15,337 nucleotides of DNA, from positions 1 to 15,337 of the IMG/VR virus record IMGVR_UViG_2534681673_000006, one strand, 5' to 3'. This DNA is from a virus (Duplodnaviria > Heunggongvirae > Uroviricota > Caudoviricetes). This document shows positions 2,910 to 15,337 of this stretch, one piece after another; position 1 is the first letter of the stretch, and every line of letters starts with the position of its first letter. Made by a program: the position numbers and the translations under genes. Below the pieces are notes generated by a model. The model had not been told where the DNA came from. It worked only from the letters and a program-made list of their open reading frames with translations, and did not search any database.

Positions 2910-3249
2910 GCTCGTCCTCTTCTTCTGTTTCCGGTGGATTTTTACGGCGGCTTATCGGGTCAAAACCGAGCAAGGAGGCCATTTTTATCATCACTCTTTC
3001 AGCGTCGGATTTTGCGCTTAATGCGGGGTTTCTGCTCTCGCCGCCCTGACTGTTAACAATGCTGAACCCGCGCGCCGCAAGGTCTGCAACGGCTTTCCGG
3101 TAAATGGAGTAGTTGACACAATACAGTTCCAGATTGCTCCAGTCGGCGGGGGTCAGGTCTCCCCGTTCCGCAAGCTGCCGCGATTTTTCCCGCCACTGCT
3201 TCACGGCGATATCATCCAGGTAGGCGGGGGCTTTCGGTGGTCTTGCCAT
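2893..3249 (-). CDS. Terminase small subunit, P27 family
   Basis: 118 aa; conserved P27-family TerS pattern (KQWREK...LELYCVNYSIYRKA...NPALSA...LGFDPISRRK) with acidic C-terminus. Sits directly upstream of terL. Confidence 0.75.
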   Translation of the reverse strand: MARPPKAPAYLDDIAVKQWREKSRQLAERGDLTPADWSNLELYCVNYSIYRKAVADLAARGFSIVNSQGGESRNPALSAKSDAERVMIKMASLLGFDPISRRKNPPETEEEDELDRLE

Positions 3250-3538
3250 GCTTATTTTTTCGCCAGATTATTTTTCAAAAAATTCCCGTGCATAAAAATT
3301 TGAGGAGGCGTTCGGTGCCCGGCGGGGTCGGGTTGGTCCTGAAAACGCCCCCCACCCCGTCATACAGCCTCATCAGCGATTGCGGAAACATTCCATAACC
3401 TCGCGGTCACGGTCGGTTAATCGCTTCGCTGTGATGCGTTCTGCGCGTCCTGACGCTTTATCTTTATGCCCTGTTTCCTGTGTCTTCCATGCGTCACGCT
3501 GCCTTATAAGTCCACGGATAAGGCGGTTTTGCTCCCGC
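3250..3538. other. HNH-terS intergenic region; candidate cos site (G-rich quasi-palindrome about 3317-3359)
   Basis: 289-bp non-coding gap at the position where HK97-like cos phages carry cos, between HNH and TerS. Contains gcccggcggggtcgggttgg ... cgccccccaccccg. Positional inference only. Confidence 0.3.
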
Positions 3539-3979
3539 TCATTCATCAGCGTCATACATCCAGTTATTGCGGTTAGCGGCCCGTTCTTCCTCTTCACGAA
3601 ATCCACCTGCGGCACGCTTGCTTTTTGTTGCCGGATCAAGCCATTTCGTTTTCTGGTTATGACACGCCTGGCACAATGGTTGATGGTTCCATTCGGGCCA
3701 GAAGAGAACATCATCACCGCCATTAATCGGGATAATGTGATCCACCACCACGGCGGGCGTATATATCCCCTTCTCAAGGCATCGCACGCATAACGGGTTT
3801 TTACTCAGATACATGGCGCGGTATTTGTCCCACTGTCTGGAATATCCACGCGCGCGGCGGTGTCCTCGTCTGGCATCCTCTGCACGCCATGCCGCCCGCC
3901 TGTGCTCCTCACACTTGCCGGATTTAACGCGCCTGTTACAGCCTGGTTCTGTGCATCGTCTTAATGGTTGCCACGGCAT
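3539..3979 (-). CDS. HNH endonuclease (phage packaging-associated)
   Basis: 146 aa; Cys-rich N-terminus (CTEPGCNRRV...CEEH) and HNH core VVDHIIPINGGDDVLFWPEWNHQPLCQACHNQKT. Adjacent to terS as in HK97-type cos systems. Confidence 0.8.
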   Translation of the reverse strand: MPWQPLRRCTEPGCNRRVKSGKCEEHRRAAWRAEDARRGHRRARGYSRQWDKYRAMYLSKNPLCVRCLEKGIYTPAVVVDHIIPINGGDDVLFWPEWNHQPLCQACHNQKTKWLDPATKSKRAAGGFREEEERAANRNNWMYDADE

Positions 3980-11035: not shown

Positions 11036-11269
11036 TTATTCTCCGGTGTGCTGTTCGCTATATCTGTCGTGCAATGTCTCTATTTCTTGTAGTTCCATTA
11101 TTACAGGCTCAAGAAGCGTTATTAATGCCGTGACAATTCTTGATTTTTGTTTGTCGCGTTCATTGTCGCCAAGTGTTTCAAGCCATATGCGCAATATTTC
11201 CAGCATGTTTTCACTGTGAGAAAGTGCAAGAAATACGCGTTCTGTTGTTTCGTGGTAAATATCACGCAT
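11036..11269 (-). CDS. Hypothetical protein, 77 aa
   Basis: GAGGA SD; start overlaps the upstream stop by 8 nt. No recognisable domain. Confidence 0.5.
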   Translation of the reverse strand: MRDIYHETTERVFLALSHSENMLEILRIWLETLGDNERDKQKSRIVTALITLLEPVIMELQEIETLHDRYSEQHTGE

Positions 11270-11495
11270 GGCTTACATCCTCAGGAAATTTTCTTCTGTA
11301 ACGCGCCTCTGCCACATATTCCGCATAATCGGCGGCGATATTCAGTACATCAAGCCCCGTTGATTTATATTCTCTCGTGGAAAGTAAGAAAAAAGCCGCT
11401 CTAATAAGTTCTGGCATTGACGAAAGCGCATCAGCCGCATCATCAGGAACGCCGGAAAATTCTTGTTTCAGGGAATTAAAACGATCATCACGCAT
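11262..11495 (-). CDS. Hypothetical protein, ~77 aa
   Basis: Start taken at ATG 11495 (GGGGGG SD), overlapping the upstream stop by 8 nt. No recognisable domain. Confidence 0.45.
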   Translation of the reverse strand: MRDDRFNSLKQEFSGVPDDAADALSSMPELIRAAFFLLSTREYKSTGLDVLNIAADYAEYVAEARYRRKFPEDVSHA

Positions 11496-11928
11496 AACCC
11501 CCCCCATTTTCACAATCAGCAACAAGAATATTTTTAGCGTCATTCAGCGACCGCGTTGCGGTGTATCGGATACATTCCAGGGCGAATAGTGTGTATTCTT
11601 CCCTTTCTTCCTTTTGTGCAAGCTCTGCTGTGCATTCAATATCAATAAGCGCGTGCATCAGCGTAGTGAGTGCGGCGGCGGCTGCGTCCGGTGTGGTTTT
11701 ATTGCACATGTACCCCTCCGCATTTTTTTCGTTAGAAATAAGCGTTCTTCTTTCCTGTTCATCGATCAGGAATACGCAGACCTCACCGCTAAGGCGTTTA
11801 AGTAAGCCGATGATTGCCCCTGATTCGCTGTCGGTCATCATGCCTGGGTAATCCTCTGCCAGTGCGCAAATAACTTCGATTTGGTGGGCGCGTTCTGCTG
11901 CCTGTTGTAGTGTGATTTCCTGGCTCAT
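11488..11928 (-). CDS. Hypothetical protein, 146 aa
   Basis: GGGGGT SD; ATGA overlap with upstream gene. No recognisable domain. Confidence 0.5.
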   Translation of the reverse strand: MSQEITLQQAAERAHQIEVICALAEDYPGMMTDSESGAIIGLLKRLSGEVCVFLIDEQERRTLISNEKNAEGYMCNKTTPDAAAAALTTLMHALIDIECTAELAQKEEREEYTLFALECIRYTATRSLNDAKNILVADCENGGGYA

Positions 11929-12125
11929 AAGCCTACCCCCTGACGAATACGGGCGGCGAATACCATCACGCAGCCAGCCGGGGATTGCTGGCGTGCGTTC
12001 TGTTCGCTAGTGGCCTCGATGGTAATCACGCGCGGTTGTGCCGTGCTCAGGGCGATAAAACGCCAGGTGAATTTATTCAGGTTGTGCAAGTCCCGCCCTT
12101 GCGGGTGTGTGGTATGATTTCTCAT
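11925..12125 (-). CDS. Small protein, 66 aa, first gene of the leftward early operon; possibly Icd-like (tentative)
   Basis: Start at ATG 12125 with GAGGT SD. HPQGR and FAAR motifs resemble, from memory, P4-type Icd-like proteins. Downstream of the divergent operator region. Confidence 0.4.
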   Translation of the reverse strand: MRNHTTHPQGRDLHNLNKFTWRFIALSTAQPRVITIEATSEQNARQQSPAGCVMVFAARIRQGVGL

Positions 12126-12152
12126 AGCTACCTCGATACTGTTGCTATCGTT

Positions 12153-12197
12153 GGTGGTTAGACGCCCTGCATGTGTTGCGAGCACTGCGGGGCGTTG
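12153..12197. repeat. Conserved ~45-bp stem-loop element, copy A; copy B at 12943-12992
   Basis: ggttagacgccc(t/c)g(c/t)atgtgtt...cactgcggggcgttg; about 85% identical. Both copies can form a 10-bp stem with one mismatch; loops differ. Confidence 0.5.
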
Positions 12198-12223
12198 CTT
12201 AATTTGAGTGACAAAACTCAAAC

Positions 12224-12279
12224 TGTGCGCACAGATTAAAATCATATGTGCGCACAGATTAAAATCATATGTGCGCACA
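12224..12279. promoter_or_regulatory. Operator array: three copies of perfect palindrome TGTGCGCACA in 23-bp tandem repeats, in the divergent promoter region
   Basis: Palindromes at 12224-12233, 12247-12256, 12270-12279; repeat unit tgtgcgcacagattaaaatcata. A partial half-site tgtgcgcc sits at 12317-12324 near a candidate TTAACA-17-TATTGT promoter for the RHH gene. Confidence 0.55.
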
Positions 12280-12353
12280 TGTCAATACTTAACATCTCAT
12301 TTTTTTTGCTGTATTGTGTGCGCCCATAAAGTCCATTTAAGTGAGGTGCATCA

Positions 12354-12551
12354 ATGTCTAGCGGTAACACAAACAACAAATCAGCAAAGAAAAATATTCG
12401 ATTCCCACATGAGCTTATAGATGGGATTGATGCCAGCGTTGAACAAGAAAAATTAACTAATCCTAGTGCTAATTTTTCCGCATGGGTCTTAGATGCCTGT
12501 GGACGCAAATTAAAATATGAACAGCGCCGGAAGGCCAAAGAATCAGAATAA
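12354..12551 (+). CDS. Ribbon-helix-helix (CopG/Arc-like) DNA-binding protein, cassette 1
   Basis: 65 aa; GAGGTG SD 5 nt upstream. KNIRFPHELIDGIDASVEQEK...SANFSAWVLDACGRKL fits an RHH strand-helix-helix. Paralogous to the 13113-13292 protein. Confidence 0.65.
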   Translation: MSSGNTNNKSAKKNIRFPHELIDGIDASVEQEKLTNPSANFSAWVLDACGRKLKYEQRRKAKESE

Positions 12552-12600
12552 TCACTATCAGCGCCGTGGTGTGAGGTACTACGGCGCATTGCTTTACAGG
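12527..12600 (+). repeat. ~74-bp near-identical junction element (second copy 13268-13341) spanning the RHH gene 3' end and a hairpin
   Basis: aaggccaaagaatcagaataat(c/t)actatcagcgccgtgg(t/c)gtgaggtactacggcgcattgctttacagg. Stem gcgccgtgg/ctacggcgc with a GAGG-containing loop. Confidence 0.55.
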
Positions 12601-12608
12601 GCAGTAAC

Positions 12609-12836
12609 ATGACCAACAACACACTATCACCAATACAAGACACGCAAACGCAAGATGATGAAATCATCCGGCAAAGGCAGTCAGAAGCCTGCGCCAGACT
12701 TGAGGAAGAACTAACCAGAACAAAAATACCACCACCAGCGCCGCGCTTAGTTCCACCAGAAAAATTTGCCCTTGAAGATTTTGTCGATAAATACCCACGG
12801 CGGCTTAAATCCGGCAAAAACCGACCGCCAGGATGA
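12609..12836 (+). CDS. Small partner protein, cassette 1, 75 aa, unknown function
   Basis: Starts MTN; C-terminal motif FALEDFVDKYPRR is shared with the cassette-2 partner (FVLDEFLKKYSR). Proline-rich middle. No known domain. Confidence 0.5.
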   Translation: MTNNTLSPIQDTQTQDDEIIRQRQSEACARLEEELTRTKIPPPAPRLVPPEKFALEDFVDKYPRRLKSGKNRPPG

Positions 12837-12999
12837 GTGCACAAAACCGAACTATGAAACGGATTATTCCGTTTCCGGGGCGTTTGTGTGTGTATAAAGA
12901 GTAAGCTATGCTCTTTTATAGCCATAATCGTTACCTCAATTAATGGTTTGGTTAGACGCCCCGTATGTGTTCCCATCACTGCGGGGCGTTGTTGTTTTG

Positions 13000-13092
13000 G
13001 GTGTATTTCACCTTTATTTTTAAATCTACATTCAGGTGAAATACACCGCAAGACTTTTTTTATCTTTTTTTTTGCGTATACTGAAATACACC
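13000..13092. promoter_or_regulatory. Operator/promoter of cassette 2: perfect 13-bp inverted repeat ggtgtatttcacc / ggtgaaatacacc plus a third half-site overlapping a TATACT -10
   Basis: Arms at 13000-13012 and 13035-13047 (22-bp spacer); tgaaatacacc at 13082-13092 directly after TATACT (13077-13082). AGGAG SD follows. Confidence 0.55.
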
Positions 13093-13112
13093 GATTATCA
13101 GGAGAACCAGAA

Positions 13113-13292
13113 ATGGCAACAGGTGCAAAGAACGCAAAATCACAAATGACAACGGTCAGAATCCCGCATGAGGTAATGACCGATATTGAGCAACTTAAAG
13201 AACCTGGCGAAAGTACCGCCGGATTTCTAGTTACGGCAGCAAAAGGCGAGATCAAACGCCGCCAGCGCCGCAAGGCCAAAGAATCAGAATAA
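13113..13292 (+). CDS. Ribbon-helix-helix DNA-binding protein, cassette 2
   Basis: 59 aa from ATG 13113 (AGGAG SD). TTVRIPHEVMTDIEQLK...TAGFLVTAAKGEIKRRQ is paralogous to cassette 1 with divergent DNA. Shared C-terminus RRKAKESE. Confidence 0.65.
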   Translation: MATGAKNAKSQMTTVRIPHEVMTDIEQLKEPGESTAGFLVTAAKGEIKRRQRRKAKESE

Positions 13293-13349
13293 TTACTATC
13301 AGCGCCGTGGCGTGAGGTACTACGGCGCATTGCTTTACAGGTACACACA

Positions 13350-13553
13350 ATGACCAATAAAGAATCAACCAATACACCATCGCAAAAAACGAACAGAGAG
13401 CACGAAAATATGGCGCTCGAGCATGAATCAGAAAGATTCGCTCCATGCGCTTTTGTCCTTGATGAGTTTCTAAAAAAATATTCACGTTCTGAACGGATGA
13501 AAATGGCAGCACAATACGGCCCCAACAAGCAAGGTAATTGCCCACCAGCCTGA
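13350..13553 (+). CDS. Small partner protein, cassette 2, 67 aa, unknown function
   Basis: Starts MTN; same position relative to the junction hairpin as the 12609 gene; shares the F.L(E/D)(D/E)F..KY.R motif. Confidence 0.5.
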   Translation: MTNKESTNTPSQKTNREHENMALEHESERFAPCAFVLDEFLKKYSRSERMKMAAQYGPNKQGNCPPA

Positions 13554-13621
13554 TCACGGTTATCATGTTCGGGCTTATGATTGTTGACACATACGGCGCA
13601 GCGGGTTAATTGTTCAGAAAG

Positions 13622-13649
13622 GCGGTTCCATATCGGGACCGCTTTTTTT
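13622..13649 (+). terminator. Rho-independent terminator of the plus-strand RHH operon
   Basis: Stem gcggttcc/gggaccgc (8 bp, one G.U), loop atatc, followed by TTTTTTT. Confidence 0.6.
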
Positions 13650-13765
13650 ATGCCTGAAAATACCCTATAGCATGGCTTTTCAGATTCACCAGGGCGAACG
13701 AATCCCCGCCCCTGTACGGGCGTATATTTCATCATGGTTATACCTCAGTATTATGGCGTTTATTC

Positions 13766-13789: not shown

Positions 13790-13829
13790 TCAATAATGGA
13801 TTGGTGGTGGCTGTGTGCCGCCAGTCTTT

Positions 13830-14018
13830 TTAGTGAACTGCCTTGCAGCTATCCTTCCAGGCCAAAACCTCAGATAAAGACCAGCCAACAGAACGCCCGC
13901 CAAGTTTACGACGTGATGGGAATTGTCCGGCCTTTTCCAGGCGGTAGCGGCATGAGCGGCTAAGGCCTGTTAGCTTTTCGCATTCTTTTTCACGTATAAA
14001 CCGATCAGTGCTTAACAC
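13830..14018 (-). CDS. alpA: AlpA-family transcriptional regulator / excisionase-like HTH protein
   Basis: 62 aa; RFIREKECEKLTGLSRSCRYRLEKAGQFPSRRKLGGRSVGWSLSEVLAWK matches the AlpA/Xis-type HTH pattern. Apparent GTG start with GGGGG SD. Adjacent to integrase. Confidence 0.75.
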   Translation of the reverse strand: MLSTDRFIREKECEKLTGLSRSCRYRLEKAGQFPSRRKLGGRSVGWSLSEVLAWKDSCKAVH

Positions 14019-14179
14019 TATTGCCCCCTTTCGTTTCTTAAAGAGTTATTTCGTGTTCTATTGCGTTGGGATGTGTCTGATTGTGTCAGGATGATTCAGA
14101 GTTGGCAAATGTTGGTGTCGCATGGTTTACAGAAAGAGGAATAATCAGGATAAAATCATTTAAATTCATGTTAATACAA

Positions 14180-14209
14180 AGGCATAAAATCTTGTTTTAT
14201 GCCTTTTTT
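14180..14209. terminator. Rho-independent terminator between int and alpA, possibly bidirectional
   Basis: Stem ggcataaaa/ttttatgcc (9 bp perfect), loop tcttg. TTTTTT follows on the plus strand; the interrupted run UUUGUAUU follows on the minus strand. Confidence 0.55.
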
Positions 14210-14308
14210 CGCACGCTTTAACGCGTAATTCACTAATGTATAAAAAACCAGCTGAGCATTAAAAATCAGTAACTTACAAATCTGTATTCTTTTTGGCCTC
14301 TTGTTCGT

Positions 14309-14375
14309 GATTGTGTCACGTTGTTGCACATTGTTTCACGTTGTATCTGTGCACTTATCCAGTATGCGCATACTG
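14309..14375. promoter_or_regulatory. Four 10-bp phased repeats (consensus nnCACGTTGT) followed by perfect 16-bp palindrome CAGTATGCGCATACTG
   Basis: tcgtgattgt gtcacgttgt tgcacattgt ttcacgttgt at 14309-14352; palindrome at 14360-14375. The 10-mer gattgtgtca recurs at 14079-14088 in the alpA promoter-proximal region. Confidence 0.5.
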
Positions 14376-14392: not shown

Positions 14393-15337
14393 TTATTTTA
14401 TTCTGGTTACTGGTAGCGTGGTTACGTTTTCATGTGTTCCCGCCAGTATCTCCAACCGCTCCACCCACATATCAAGCGCATTGCGTTTCGCATCAATATA
14501 GCGGGAATGGTTGTACACGCGTTGCATTCCTGGCATCTGGTGGCCTGTAAGCTGCTCCACGACGTGAGGATCAACGCCTAAATCGTTCAGCATGGTTGTA
14601 AAGGTGCGCCGGATGTCATGCAATGACCATTGAGGGTGTTTTAGCCTCCTGTGCGCTAATCTGCCGTACTGCGATACGCTAGCCTCCTGTTTCACTTCCC
14701 CCAGTAATAAGCCCGTGTGCCTGTTCTGGTCCACCAGCCGCGTGACGAACGGCAGGATCGCTTCCGGTATGGGCCGGAATATTGCAACCTTCGTTTTGCT
14801 GTGCTCCTTCGGAACGGTCCATAGCATTTCGGTAAAATCCCACTCGCTGATCTCCGATAACCTCAGTTCTACCGTCCTGGCTCCGAAGACAATCAGGAGG
14901 CGGATTAACGCGACGTAGTAAGGAGAAAATATTTTTTTATCCAGCGCCTGCAATAACTCGCCCAGTTCTTTGGTGCTTAAGACACGTTCGCTTATATCCG
15001 GTTTTTTCCCAACGTCCGCCACGTTCAGATCATCGAGAACGTTGCTGATTGCAAAGCGCCGCCTCCGGCAGAACTTAAGCGCCTGCTTGCATGTCTGTAG
15101 CACGAATCCGGCAGTAACAGGTGTTCGCTTTGCCACCTGGTCAAAACAGGCCAGCCAGTGCCGTAGCTCGCATTTATCCAGCGGCATAGCGCCAATGTAC
15201 TGTATTACGTGATTATTAAGTCGCCTTTTCAGGGCGATATAATCCACGCGGTTTTCCTTTACGTACGACTCAAGCCAGTAGGTGAGCGCATCGCCAACCG
15301 TTACCGGCTTTAACGCTTCCTGTACGGCGTAATTCAT
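14393..15337 (-). CDS. int: Tyrosine site-specific integrase (phage integrase family)
   Basis: 314 aa; core-binding-like N-terminus and catalytic C-terminus with R...HDIRRTF...GHQMPGMQRVYNHSRY (R-H-R-Y signature). ATG sits at the last three bases of the window, so any N-terminal extension cannot be assessed. Confidence 0.85.
   Translation of the reverse strand: MNYAVQEALKPVTVGDALTYWLESYVKENRVDYIALKRRLNNHVIQYIGAMPLDKCELRHWLACFDQVAKRTPVTAGFVLQTCKQALKFCRRRRFAISNVLDDLNVADVGKKPDISERVLSTKELGELLQALDKKIFSPYYVALIRLLIVFGARTVELRLSEISEWDFTEMLWTVPKEHSKTKVAIFRPIPEAILPFVTRLVDQNRHTGLLLGEVKQEASVSQYGRLAHRRLKHPQWSLHDIRRTFTTMLNDLGVDPHVVEQLTGHQMPGMQRVYNHSRYIDAKRNALDMWVERLEILAGTHENVTTLPVTRIK

Follow-up and report, generated by a model that had tools for sequence, protein, structure and literature searches.

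Tandem RHH cassettes inside a stop-free antisense frame: a candidate control module of a capsid-forming PICI

Introduction

How a Gram-negative PICI is held silent until a helper phage arrives is the question raised by the locus described here. [quoted passage not shown] AlpA alone has so far sufficed in published accounts of induction.

The stretch of DNA analyzed (the window, 15,337 nucleotides) is a capsid-forming PICI of approximately 15 kb, a family described in 10.1101/2022.09.08.507074. It encodes int, alpA, and replication genes together with its own capsid, protease, portal, connector, and terminase genes; RefSeq names in matching islands are terminase, portal, capsid, RepA helicase, and integrase. 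Two plus-strand cassettes sit between two minus-strand genes of this island, and their place is fixed, with alpA on one side and an Icd-like gene on the other.

11925..12125, minus strand: Icd-like gene (NF033153, 69 bits), which heads the early operon and would be the controlled gene under the proposal below
13830..14018, minus strand: alpA (PF05930, 65 bits; PMC6092414), upstream activator gene and source of read-through for the antisense frame

About one in four complete E. coli genomes carries the cassette locus, which is also present in many Enterobacterales, and AntA or Bro genes adjoin the cassette in some related islands. A tblastn search with RHH2 and partner 2, the two proteins of the second cassette, against 50,697 phage records returned zero matches, and experiments on the cassette genes were not found in the literature.

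The answer that we favor, and regard as somewhat probable, is that immunity-type repressors and antisense RNAs silence the early operon, while transcription driven from alpA passes through the cassettes along a frame that is translated. The region would then be the maintenance and immunity control module of a Gram-negative satellite, present in two tandem copies of different specificity.

Architecture of the tandem cassettes

The initial annotation described a duplicated and diverged cassette composed of a stem-loop element, an operator, an RHH gene, a junction hairpin, and a small partner gene. Every element was found again at or near the proposed place. The four plus-strand ORFs (12354–12551, 12609–12836, 13113–13292, and 13350–13553) are the same four that RefSeq annotates in other E. 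coli genomes. Two blocks are repeated between the units, namely the 43-nt stem-loop element (12155–12197 and 12949–12991; 88% identity) and a 98-nt junction (12522–12619 and 13263–13360; 89% identity). Outside these blocks, the units are strongly diverged.

The units themselves are real, but their limits are wider than the initial extents of 12153–12836 and 12943–13553. Each extends approximately 45 nt more to the left, where it starts with a promoter-like TAnnnT and an icd start that is either real or a remnant, and each closes with its own terminator-like hairpin (12856–12892 and 13621–13649). The proposed transcription of the cassettes convergent with alpA and int is supported.

12522..12619, plus strand: conserved junction 1, comprising the RHH C-terminal tail QRRKAKESE, a hairpin, and the partner start
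12856..12892, plus strand: unit 1 end hairpin, terminator-like, GAAACGGA/TCCGTTTC followed by a T-rich run
13263..13360, plus strand: conserved junction 2, with a hairpin at 13302–13328
13621..13649, plus strand: unit 2 end, an intrinsic terminator with a GC stem and then T7 (−20.4 kcal/mol on the plus strand)

The junction 1 hairpin (12561–12587, plus strand) has a weak U tail and is terminator-like, possibly an attenuator; the junction folds at −24.3 kcal/mol on the plus strand versus −15.1 on the minus strand. The unit 1 end hairpin is kept downstream of partner 1 in other islands. Junction 1 seems, in addition, to have served as a recombination joint. Among E. coli sequences, the best match to the window starts exactly at 12522, the first position of the junction, and the same partners are found combined with different RHH types, which together argue for a mosaic origin of the tandem arrangement. 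The tandem state may have arisen when islands recombined at the hairpin and the junction, which make up the two conserved flanks.

RHH genes and their operators

12354..12551, plus strand: RHH1, 65 aa, YlcI/YnfO family, specificity type a
13113..13292, plus strand: RHH2, 59 aa, YlcI/YnfO family, type b

RHH1 and RHH2 share 37% identity (E 4e-14), and both belong to NCBIfam NF041551, scoring 59.0 and 62.1 bits, respectively, against a cut-off of 30. Pfam DUF3950 is matched by RHH1 (28.3 bits; cut-off 25), and RHH2 is not listed for it at E ≤ 0.1. The RHH fold suggested initially is borne out for both first genes by structure prediction, with a predicted N-terminal strand and two helices. At 59–65 aa, the proteins hold a DNA-binding fold and a short basic tail, nothing more. 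dN/dS is lower in the plus-strand gene frame than in the antisense frame; on these sequence comparisons, purifying selection acts on the frames of the plus-strand genes. Variation within the family concentrates in RHH residues 10–18.

12224..12279: type a operators, three copies of TGTGCGCACA starting at 12224, 12247, and 12270, a 23-nt tandem repeat
12312–12317, plus strand: RHH1 promoter −10, TATTGT, whose end is overlapped by a fourth, degenerate operator, TGTGCGCCCA (12317–12326)
13000..13092: type b operators, GGTGTATTTCACCT at 13000–13013 inverted relative to 13034–13047, and a third site, CTGAAATACACC, at 13081–13092

The three type a copies proposed for unit 1 are thus joined by a fourth. 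The three copies of TGTGCGCACA and the TGTGCGCCCA at 12317 make 4 matches versus 0.84 expected; related islands have two type a copies. The degenerate site lies right behind the −10, so that unit 1 is laid out like unit 2. For unit 2, the inverted repeat and half-site of the initial annotation are present, but the half-site does not lie over the −10; it directly follows TATACT (13077–13082).

The proposed difference in operator specificity turned out to be a general pattern. In a set of 34 cassettes drawn from many genera, changes in the operator core go together with changes in RHH residues 10–18, the DNA-reading strand, and at least 13 types can be told apart. Type b is uniform: in 14 of 14 cassettes (13 plus unit 2 of the window) from about ten genera, one and the same operator is found with the RHH beta-strand KSQMTTVRIPH. 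The −10 lies at −36 in most of the 34 cassettes and at −33 to −42 in the others, with one start that could not be placed. One operator follows the −10 directly, one lies at approximately −75, and one between −97 and −114. Because the operator core co-varies with these residues at fixed promoter positions, a two-specificity immunity reading appears reasonable.

12256..12285, minus strand: candidate divergent promoter toward the Icd-like gene, −35 TTGACA (12285–12280) and −10 TAATCT (12261–12256)

The 18-nt spacer of this candidate contains one operator copy. A minus-strand promoter candidate is present in 24 of the 34 cassettes and is missing or weak in the other 10, unit 2 of the window included, where the site (TTGCGG, 17 nt, TAGATT; 13051–13023) has 7 of 12 consensus matches. 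Among the 24, a −35 of TTGAC(G/A) or TTGAAG stands at −62 from the RHH ATG in 18 (at −61 in one of them), followed after 17–18 nt by TAnnnT. At the level of consensus matching, we infer a divergent promoter facing the Icd-like operon. The RHH promoter and the candidate minus-strand promoter would lie back to back, with operators inside and beside both.

A more modest reading is that the RHH proteins autoregulate their own small operons only and that the cassettes have no silencing role. The partners would then be payload, for example factors for helper-phage interference, exclusion, or host modification made in the quiescent island. This reading fits the finding that operator copies are confined to each cassette's own promoter region, with none elsewhere in the island, and the site right after the −10 is the classic layout of autorepression. 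It does not account for the fixed place between alpA and the Icd-like gene or for a conserved minus-strand −35 that abuts an operator. We consider it unlikely, though worth keeping in view, and further evidence on both sides comes from the elements described below.

A candidate antisense RNA over the Icd-like start

12110..12118, plus strand: extended −10 promoter TGgTATGAT of candidate antisense RNA 1, within the first Icd-like codons
12124..12207, plus strand: candidate cis-antisense small RNA 1, approximately 80 nt, with hairpin 1, then a terminator hairpin (12161–12196) and a U-rich tail
12908..13001, plus strand: second copy of the candidate small-RNA gene, −10 TATGCT (12908–12913), two hairpins and a U tail

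The stem-loop element at 12155–12197 falls inside candidate small RNA 1, which by position is complementary to the start codon and Shine-Dalgarno sequence of the Icd-like gene. Its structure is supported by covariation: RNAalifold gives 23 pairs, of which 13 have compensatory changes, and pairing is kept in 95.9% of cells, a value equaled by 0 of 500 shuffles and set against approximately 40% in slid controls. The structure is also strand-specific. The alignment has 109 G.U cells on the plus strand versus 4 on the minus strand, and the minimum free energy of small RNA 1 is −38.7 kcal/mol on the plus strand versus −24.0 on the minus strand. No clear −35 accompanies the candidate promoter. Within its −10 hexamer, T1 and T6 are invariant and A2 is nearly invariant over 32 diverse cassettes, and both the middle bases and the overlapping Icd codons vary. 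From the strand-specific covarying structure and this TAnnnT box, we infer that the stem-loop is the terminator of an approximately 80-nt antisense RNA over the Icd-like start.

The second copy folds at −33.5 kcal/mol on the plus strand versus −23.9 on the minus strand. Its minus strand retains a remnant icd start (Shine-Dalgarno GAGGTA, 12938–12933; ATG, 12926–12924; MAIKEHSLLFIHTQT) that resembles the Icd N-terminus MVAVNHTPHLVHTQT. Rfam C4 and IsrK gave no match over the whole window at E ≤ 1 or over 12050–13060 at E ≤ 10, and the small RNA matched no Rfam family, either in the search of the whole window or in that of the cassette region, run with laxer filters. A full-length minus-strand match to the R1162 antisense RNA (18 bits versus 55) was far below threshold and was taken as chance.

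Partner proteins

12609..12836, plus strand: partner 1, 75 aa, small and non-globular, motif FALEDFVDKYPRRLKSGKNRPPG
13350..13553, plus strand: partner 2, 67 aa, motif FAPCAFVLDEFLKKYSR

The partners share only 25% identity (E 0.009). The common C-terminal motif noted initially is retained in about 30 homologs with the core F[AV]L[ED].F..KY.R. Their lack of a recognized family likewise stands, as no credible match was obtained in Pfam, NCBIfam, PADLOC, or PDB. PADLOC gave only Cas8 fragments for partner 2 far below cut-off (17.6 bits versus 125), and a profile of the partner family against PDB sequences found no match. By their sequence conservation, the partners are real but tiny proteins, conserved at the protein level. 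The family is tiny and confined to E. coli. A partner-like ORF follows the RHH gene in 0 of 46 cassettes outside this species. A partner also occurs without an upstream RHH gene (L052–L054).

Protein-level conservation of the partners suits the autoregulation-only reading, and genes co-transcribed with maintenance repressors are often cargo. The 46 cassettes without a partner-like ORF point the other way, since they leave RHH gene, operators, and hairpin as the conserved core. In the silencing reading that we favor, the partners would be accessory cargo, co-transcribed at low level past a weak terminator.

Each partner could instead modulate its RHH protein as an anti-repressor or co-repressor in a two-protein switch, for instance through an acidic helix on the basic RHH tail. 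The sole conserved DNA block contains both the tail RRQRRKAKESE and the N-terminus of the partner, the model of partner 1 predicts a long, charged helix, and a weak terminator between the genes would fix their ratio. Yet most RHH cassettes are without a partner, the same partner also accompanies RHH types with a different tail (type e), and a partner can stand alone, so we regard such a switch as quite improbable.

Two type II toxin-antitoxin modules, each with an RHH antitoxin and a small toxin, were among the initial suggestions. The layout, a two-gene operon with the autoregulated RHH gene first, would agree with them, as would the best structural matches of RHH2, which include the RHH antitoxins Rv0298, CopA_SO, HicB, and TacA. 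The second gene, however, belongs to no recognizable toxin or defense family and matches no solved structure. The model of partner 1, a long helix and a short helix (pTM 0.34), argues against a globular toxin. The gene pairing is not obligate either, with a tiny family limited to E. coli, most RHH genes lacking a partner, and none in any of the 46 cassettes outside this species. The RHH proteins also have only a short basic tail beyond the DNA-binding fold. A toxin-antitoxin function is, in our judgment, very improbable. The initial reading is thus partly upheld, with its two-specificity immunity retained and its toxin-antitoxin modules set aside.

The stop-free antisense frame

12242..13735, minus strand: stop-free antisense frame of 497 codons, with ATG at 13735 and GAGGT 6 nt upstream

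The initial annotation had overlooked three features, namely this frame, the strand-specific terminator-like character of the stem-loop, and the candidate divergent promoter facing the Icd-like gene. The frame spans all four plus-strand genes and all intervening DNA and shares third-codon positions with them. Over its region it has 0 stops, whereas the two remaining minus frames have 26 and 49; from the island's other genes approximately 15 would be expected (P(0) = 3e-7). Open antisense frames recur in other genera, with 200–600 codons in many, and in most loci the frame is in frame with the Icd-like gene. In the window it ends 117 nt before the Icd-like start, since the third 23-bp repeat shifts the frame, and in-frame read-in is therefore impossible here. 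Its product matched nothing in Pfam or PHROG.

Three alternative origins of the overlap were considered and rejected. The frame is not a by-product of the RHH family, as prophage ylcI has no open antisense frame, nor of codon usage, as the island's other genes show 3 stops in every 100 codons when read in that relative frame. The converse, a long minus-strand gene that yields the plus-strand ORFs as a side effect, fails on their family membership, fold, and dN/dS.

These last points also weigh on the view that the long minus-strand ORF is the true gene, of Icd/Ash type with a long N-terminal extension, and that the plus-strand ORFs are chance or secondary. Gene callers do predict the long ORF, it has a Shine-Dalgarno sequence and an ATG, and in many genera the 200–600 open codons usually run into the Icd-like gene. 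The part upstream of the Icd/Ash domain is nevertheless without matches, its composition is serine- and cysteine-rich, and it is unlike between genera except where it mirrors plus-strand elements. With the plus-strand RHH genes in a curated family, folding as RHH, and showing the lower dN/dS, we can lend hardly any credence to this view.

Both the open frame and the strand-specific hairpin behind TAnnnT are left unexplained if the RHH proteins autoregulate their own operons only. On the proposal that the frame counteracts Rho, the minus-strand RNA has a C/G ratio of 0.97, compared with 0.86 for the remainder of the operon, a difference too small to point to Rho sensitivity. AlpA was also considered as an antiterminator of the P. 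aeruginosa type; the window's AlpA has no detectable sequence similarity to the P. aeruginosa protein, and the idea is kept as a lead only.

Proposed mode of control

Under the silencing reading, the YlcI/YnfO RHH repressor would bind three or four cassette-specific sites in its own promoter region, as the co-variation suggests. One operator in the spacer of the divergent promoter toward the Icd-like operon, and another near its start, would bring that promoter under the same control. The approximately 80-nt antisense RNA would extend over both the start codon and the ribosome-binding site of the Icd-like message. As long as the island is quiescent, the repressor would close the early promoter and limit itself, and the antisense RNA would block Icd-like translation. 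Once a helper phage induces the island, a transcript started at the alpA promoter would enter the cassettes from the opposite side. Translation of the stop-free frame may carry this transcript across them by preventing premature Rho-dependent termination, so that it reaches the early operon while colliding with the transcription of the repressors.

A bolder formulation, which we advance tentatively and consider rather doubtful, is that the locus represents an overlooked Gram-negative master-repressor system, in which a hypervariable Arc-like RHH protein and a cis-antisense RNA are encoded backwards inside a stop-free translated conduit. The conduit would be a sequence-independent open frame of 0.6 to 1.8 kb, kept stop-free by selection. 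It would let AlpA-driven transcription and, in most islands, in-frame translation pass into the Icd-like and replication genes, and this passage would override both layers of repression. If this is true, approximately 1.5 kb is read on both strands throughout, with one of the two readings selected only for openness.

Comparison with known control systems

The closest parallels lie in phage immunity regions. As in P22 immI (Arc, Mnt, ant, sar), small RHH repressors are predicted here on operators in back-to-back promoters, and a short candidate antisense RNA would act where translation of the controlled gene begins. The counterpart of the latter in P22 is the sar antisense RNA. The AntA or Bro genes beside the cassette in some related islands are a further likeness. 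The RHH proteins show no significant similarity to Arc (E 0.57). Control here, unlike in P22, would fall on an Icd-like gene with replication genes behind it rather than on ant, and an antisense open frame runs over the repressor gene.

P1 immI (C4 RNA, icd, ant) shares with the window an Icd-type gene at the head of the controlled operon. The C4 RNA of P1 and the CI RNA of P4 block translation at the start of an operon, which leads to Rho-dependent termination, and the same logic is proposed here. P4 and the Rfam families C4 and IsrK have been discussed for PICIs (PMC10111431). The window differs in having no Rfam C4 or IsrK match, in a proposed RNA that is cis-antisense with its own promoter rather than processed from the sense transcript, and in a candidate protein repressor that is present as well.

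Among the Gram-positive PICIs (SaPIs), the gene for the Stl/Rpr repressor and the operon for excision and replication diverge from one control region (PMC6092414), a layout comparable to the one predicted here, and these repressors too occur in many specificity variants among islands. Stl proteins, however, are large helix-turn-helix proteins unrelated to RHH. The int and alpA genes here are located on the far side of the repressor gene and are transcribed toward it, and AlpA is the established inducer of Gram-negative islands.

Coliphages 186 and P2 have face-to-face promoters in which the repressor is transcribed against the lytic or early transcript, and the overlap can interfere, as it may here. 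Their overlap measures tens of bases, whereas that in the islands extends over 0.6 to 1.7 kb with an antisense strand kept translatable. Omega (pSM19035) and CopG-like RHH antitoxins bind short repeat sites, direct or inverted, and the predicted operators of the types here likewise show both orientations, but no partition or toxin partner is present and sequence similarity is not detectable.

The nearest relatives by family are YlcI (DLP12) and YnfO (Qin) of E. coli K-12, both in NF041551; YlcI shares the core RFP..I....FSAWV with RHH1. The two differ in location, as they lie in lambdoid prophages near packaging genes, and ylcI has neither the hairpin nor the open antisense frame. A report on the function of YlcI or YnfO was not found in the literature.

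Concluding remarks

The locus is a concrete and widespread candidate for the off switch of Gram-negative PICIs. With so many operator specificities, satellites would be expected to form immunity groups, which would bear on the co-residence of islands and on engineered PICI vectors. The stop-free antisense frame offers a rare and statistically clean case of selection for openness rather than for protein sequence. As such, it is relevant to overlapping genes and Rho-dependent polarity, and also to gene callers, whose strand annotation of the region is at present inconsistent. The YlcI/YnfO (DUF3950) family would, through this locus, gain its first functional context.

Island layout and genomic setting

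The window comprises an entire phage satellite, a capsid-forming PICI. Read from right to left, its minus strand carries the integrase, alpA, the Icd-like gene, and several small genes, including a DUF4222 gene. Genes for a RepA-type helicase and an SSB follow leftward, and then the capsid, protease, portal, connector, HNH, and terminase genes. The only plus-strand genes of the whole island are the four ORFs of two tandem units, located between alpA and the Icd-like gene. Each unit comprises a stem-loop element, operators, a ribbon-helix-helix (RHH) gene, a junction, and a partner gene.

14393-15337, minus strand, integrase
13830-14018, minus strand, alpA
13350-13553, plus strand, partner 2
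13113-13292, plus strand, RHH2
12609-12836, plus strand, partner 1
12354-12551, plus strand, RHH1
11925-12125, minus strand, Icd-like gene

This arrangement is found in 1341 of 5426 complete E. coli genomes, where RefSeq names these ORFs 'YlcI/YnfO family protein' or 'hypothetical protein'. The duplication described in the initial annotation is confirmed as an observation, and its interpretation is partly supported. All described elements are present, and each unit reaches further left and right than first proposed. The stem-loop element (43 nt, 88% identical between units) and the junction (98 nt, 89%) are conserved; the remainder has strongly diverged.

Several features were recorded in the flanking regions. 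A terminator-like hairpin with a T-run at 13798-13827 (plus strand) adjoins the alpA stop codon and would halt plus-strand transcripts escaping the 13621-13649 terminator before they run antisense into alpA. The int-alpA intergenic region holds two exact copies of GATTGTGTCA (14079-14088 and 14309-14318) and a degenerate third (14329-14338), which flank promoter-like sites for alpA. AlpA or the integrase may bind these copies; with two mismatches allowed, their number in the window as a whole is at chance level. Also between int and alpA, the minus strand at 14161-14242 gives a sub-threshold Rfam match to the Brucella sRNA BSnc120 (27 bits, E 0.011; the gathering score is 114), and this hairpin plus T-run is probably just a terminator. 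Further left, phrog_2512 (154 positions) is divided over two overlapping minus-strand ORFs (11262-11928). Positions 1-76 correspond to the C-terminal half of the 11488-11928 ORF, whose N-terminal half matches a different family (phrog_1478), and positions 63-154 to the 11262-11543 ORF; the split looks like a frameshift or gene fusion.

Predicted RHH repressors and their operators

The first genes of the units are predicted to encode ribbon-helix-helix repressors, belonging to a family with many specificities. RHH1 and RHH2 are 37% identical, and each scores above the cut-off of the curated YlcI/YnfO model. Modeled by AlphaFold from 29 family members, RHH2 shows the expected strand-helix-helix layout (pLDDT 85).

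For comparison, 46 further loci were fetched from Enterobacterales and Gilliamella, one genome per species, and the 230 nt upstream of each RHH gene were compared. The promoter layout is nearly fixed: most cassettes have a -10 TATACT at -36 from the RHH ATG. An operator site comes immediately downstream of this -10, another sits near -75, and a further one falls anywhere from -97 to -114, the orientation being direct or inverted. The core of the operator varies jointly with RHH residues 10-18, defining at least 13 types. KSQMTTVRIPH pairs with GA(A/C)ATACACC in about ten genera, KSKKLEARVPH with GTCAGCCACC, and KSAKKNIRFPH with GTGCGCACA. This co-variation is the strongest evidence short of experiment that RHH proteins bind these sites.

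The operators are as initially annotated, without copies elsewhere in the island, and their sequences differ between units. Unit 1 shares the layout of unit 2 and includes a degenerate fourth site. In unit 2, a half-site had been placed over the -10, but the third site of its operator type (type b, that of RHH2) comes after the -10. The window has three operator copies of a 23-nt unit, TGTGCGCACAGATTAAAATCATA (12224-12292); 94%-identical islands, among them that of E. coli 042, have two. With the additional copy, the likely 5' leader gains an operator.

A candidate divergent promoter was found in 24 of 34 cassettes. There, a minus-strand TTGAC(G/A) or TTGAAG hexamer adjoins the middle operator and is followed by 17-18 nt and TAnnnT; the -35 starts at -62 in 18 of these (-61 in one).

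12285-12256, minus strand, unit 1 candidate divergent promoter (TTGACA, 18 nt, TAATCT)

In unit 1, one operator lies within the spacer and another at the likely start. The unit 2 counterpart is weaker, and this unit no longer faces a real icd gene. At the level of consensus, transcription of the Icd-like gene and of the tightly coupled genes that follow would start from this promoter, which would be shut off by the RHH protein.

Stem-loop element and predicted antisense RNA

Thirty-two non-redundant copies of the stem-loop element were aligned. RNAalifold returned two hairpins together comprising 23 pairs, with compensatory changes in 13. Pairing holds in 95.9% of cells; none of 500 shuffles reached the observed values, and slid controls gave about 40%. 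The structure favors the plus strand, with 109 G.U cells versus 4 on the minus strand (where pairing falls to 81.6%) and folding energies for the window copies of -38.7 and -33.5 versus -24.0 and -23.9 kcal/mol. A U-rich run comes after the second hairpin. About 45 nt upstream of the first hairpin stands a TAnnnT hexamer, with T1 and T6 invariant and A2 nearly so, and these bases sit on variable codons of the overlapping Icd-like gene.

12110-12118, window copy of the TAnnnT box with extended TG (TGgTATGAT)

The element thus reads as a plus-strand terminator behind a promoter-like box. Hairpins, strand specificity, U-rich run, and TAnnnT box together predict an RNA of about 80 nt, which would be complementary to the Icd-like start codon and Shine-Dalgarno sequence. 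No Rfam family matched the predicted RNA. The minus strand at 12124-12197 resembles the model of the R1162-like plasmid antisense RNA over its full length but far below threshold (18 bits, where 55 are required; E 2.5). This hit lies on the strand opposite to that favored by G.U pairs and was taken as chance. In PHROGs, the Icd-like family (phrog_6196, phrog_1743; the window gene and loci L051, L007, and L014) carries the label 'transcriptional repressor'. Its 93-position profile begins about 26 residues upstream of the ATG used for the window gene, so in some phage records the ORF is called through the hairpin region.

Unit 2 contains a full second small-RNA copy and a remnant icd start (SD, ATG, and MAIKEHSLLFIHTQT). 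The duplication therefore copied the whole control module, beyond the two genes.

Partner proteins and origin of the tandem state

Both partners are real genes, as dN/dS is lower in the partner frame than in the antisense frame, but they are marginal ones. About 30 partner clusters occur among 5.8 billion proteins, the named ones all from E. coli, and a profile search of 1.84 billion representatives found 22 members. Their genes are always located in this zone of PICIs. As initially described, the two share a motif: the pair is barely alike, yet a short core, (K/R)FALE.F..KYPRRLK..KNRPPG or FAPCAFALE.FLKEY, is kept in all homologs. The RHH-partner junction hairpin likewise belongs to the plus strand; its U tail is weak, and it could be an attenuator.

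A toxin-antitoxin role had been among the initial suggestions. Searches against toxin, defense, and other families gave no match, in line with the first impression of the partners. In the partner 1 model (pTM 0.34), a proline-rich linker joins a long helix to a short one. Among 46 cassettes from other genera, none was found to have a partner-like ORF downstream of its RHH gene. The toxin-antitoxin reading was rejected on these grounds. Given their marginal standing, the lack of a family match, and partnerless cassettes outside E. coli, the partners are treated as accessory cargo.

The conserved junction starts at 12522, and the best E. coli match to the window begins at precisely this position; left of it, the window is 94% identical to a different island type. 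In other genomes, different RHH types are joined to the same two partners. A variable core (the operators and the DNA-reading part of the RHH protein) is bordered by two conserved blocks, which appear to act as crossover points. A variant order occurs in three E. coli loci (L052-L054, about 3001-3567), where a partner-type gene comes first after the Ash/Icd-type gene, preceded by only a remnant of the junction hairpin. A full small-RNA-plus-RHH cassette of another specificity (type e) with a second partner follows, all inside a 605-codon open antisense frame.

A stop-free antisense frame

On the minus strand, 497 codons from an ATG at 13735 to 12242 contain no stop, with GAGGT 6 nt upstream of the ATG; the two remaining minus frames contain 26 and 49 stops. 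The open frame spans all four genes and every promoter, operator, hairpin, and terminator between them. Non-coding DNA makes up 690 nt of it, and over this part the two other frames contain 15 and 32 stops. The four plus-strand genes are all in one frame, and the antisense frame shares third-codon positions with them. Other island genes carry 3.0 stops per 100 codons in the same relative frame, so fifteen would be expected here (P(0) = 3e-7).

In most of the 46 loci, the RHH gene is overlapped by an open minus frame of 200 to 370 codons, and in one E. coli island the frame reaches 605 codons. In compact islands, the frame begins just after alpA and has 0-3 stops, all beside alpA, versus 10-25 in other frames. 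It runs in frame into the Icd-like gene in most loci; in the window, this continuity is broken by the third operator repeat, as 23 bp does not divide into whole codons. Upstream of the Icd/Ash domain, the frame matched no protein family and shows no likeness between genera, and ylcI, a related gene of lambdoid prophage, has no open antisense frame. Taken with the recurrence, these comparisons suggest that the frame is selected for openness, not for a product. Annotation pipelines are inconsistent here: one assembly has a 353-aa antisense ORF called over the RHH and partner genes (L051, 2361-3422), and in E. coli 042 (L002, 3399-3870) RefSeq marks an antisense stretch as a pseudogene 'missing C-terminus'.

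Proposed mechanism and relation to known systems

The module is assembled from pieces of known kinds, namely an Arc-like repressor with operators, an antisense RNA (here predicted), and convergent transcription. In the literature searched, no description was found of their combination, of its occurrence in Gram-negative satellites, or of the open antisense frame. P4 and PICIs are discussed in PMC10111431, and the AlpA of P. aeruginosa is a processive antiterminator (PMC7969949, PMC9371919). As the window AlpA has no detectable sequence similarity to that protein, antitermination by the window AlpA is a lead only.

The analysis shows the RHH fold and family membership, the co-variation of the operators, hairpins that covary and are strand-specific, and the open frame with its stop statistics; the mechanism that follows is inferred. 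In it, the RHH protein would repress the divergent Icd-like promoter, and the hairpins would be part of an antisense RNA preventing translation of the Icd-like gene. In P1 and P4, an Icd-type operon undergoes termination when translation is blocked at its start. The open frame would allow transcripts driven by alpA to pass through the inverted module without being terminated by Rho, a proposal that fits two published results and the logic of P1 and P4.
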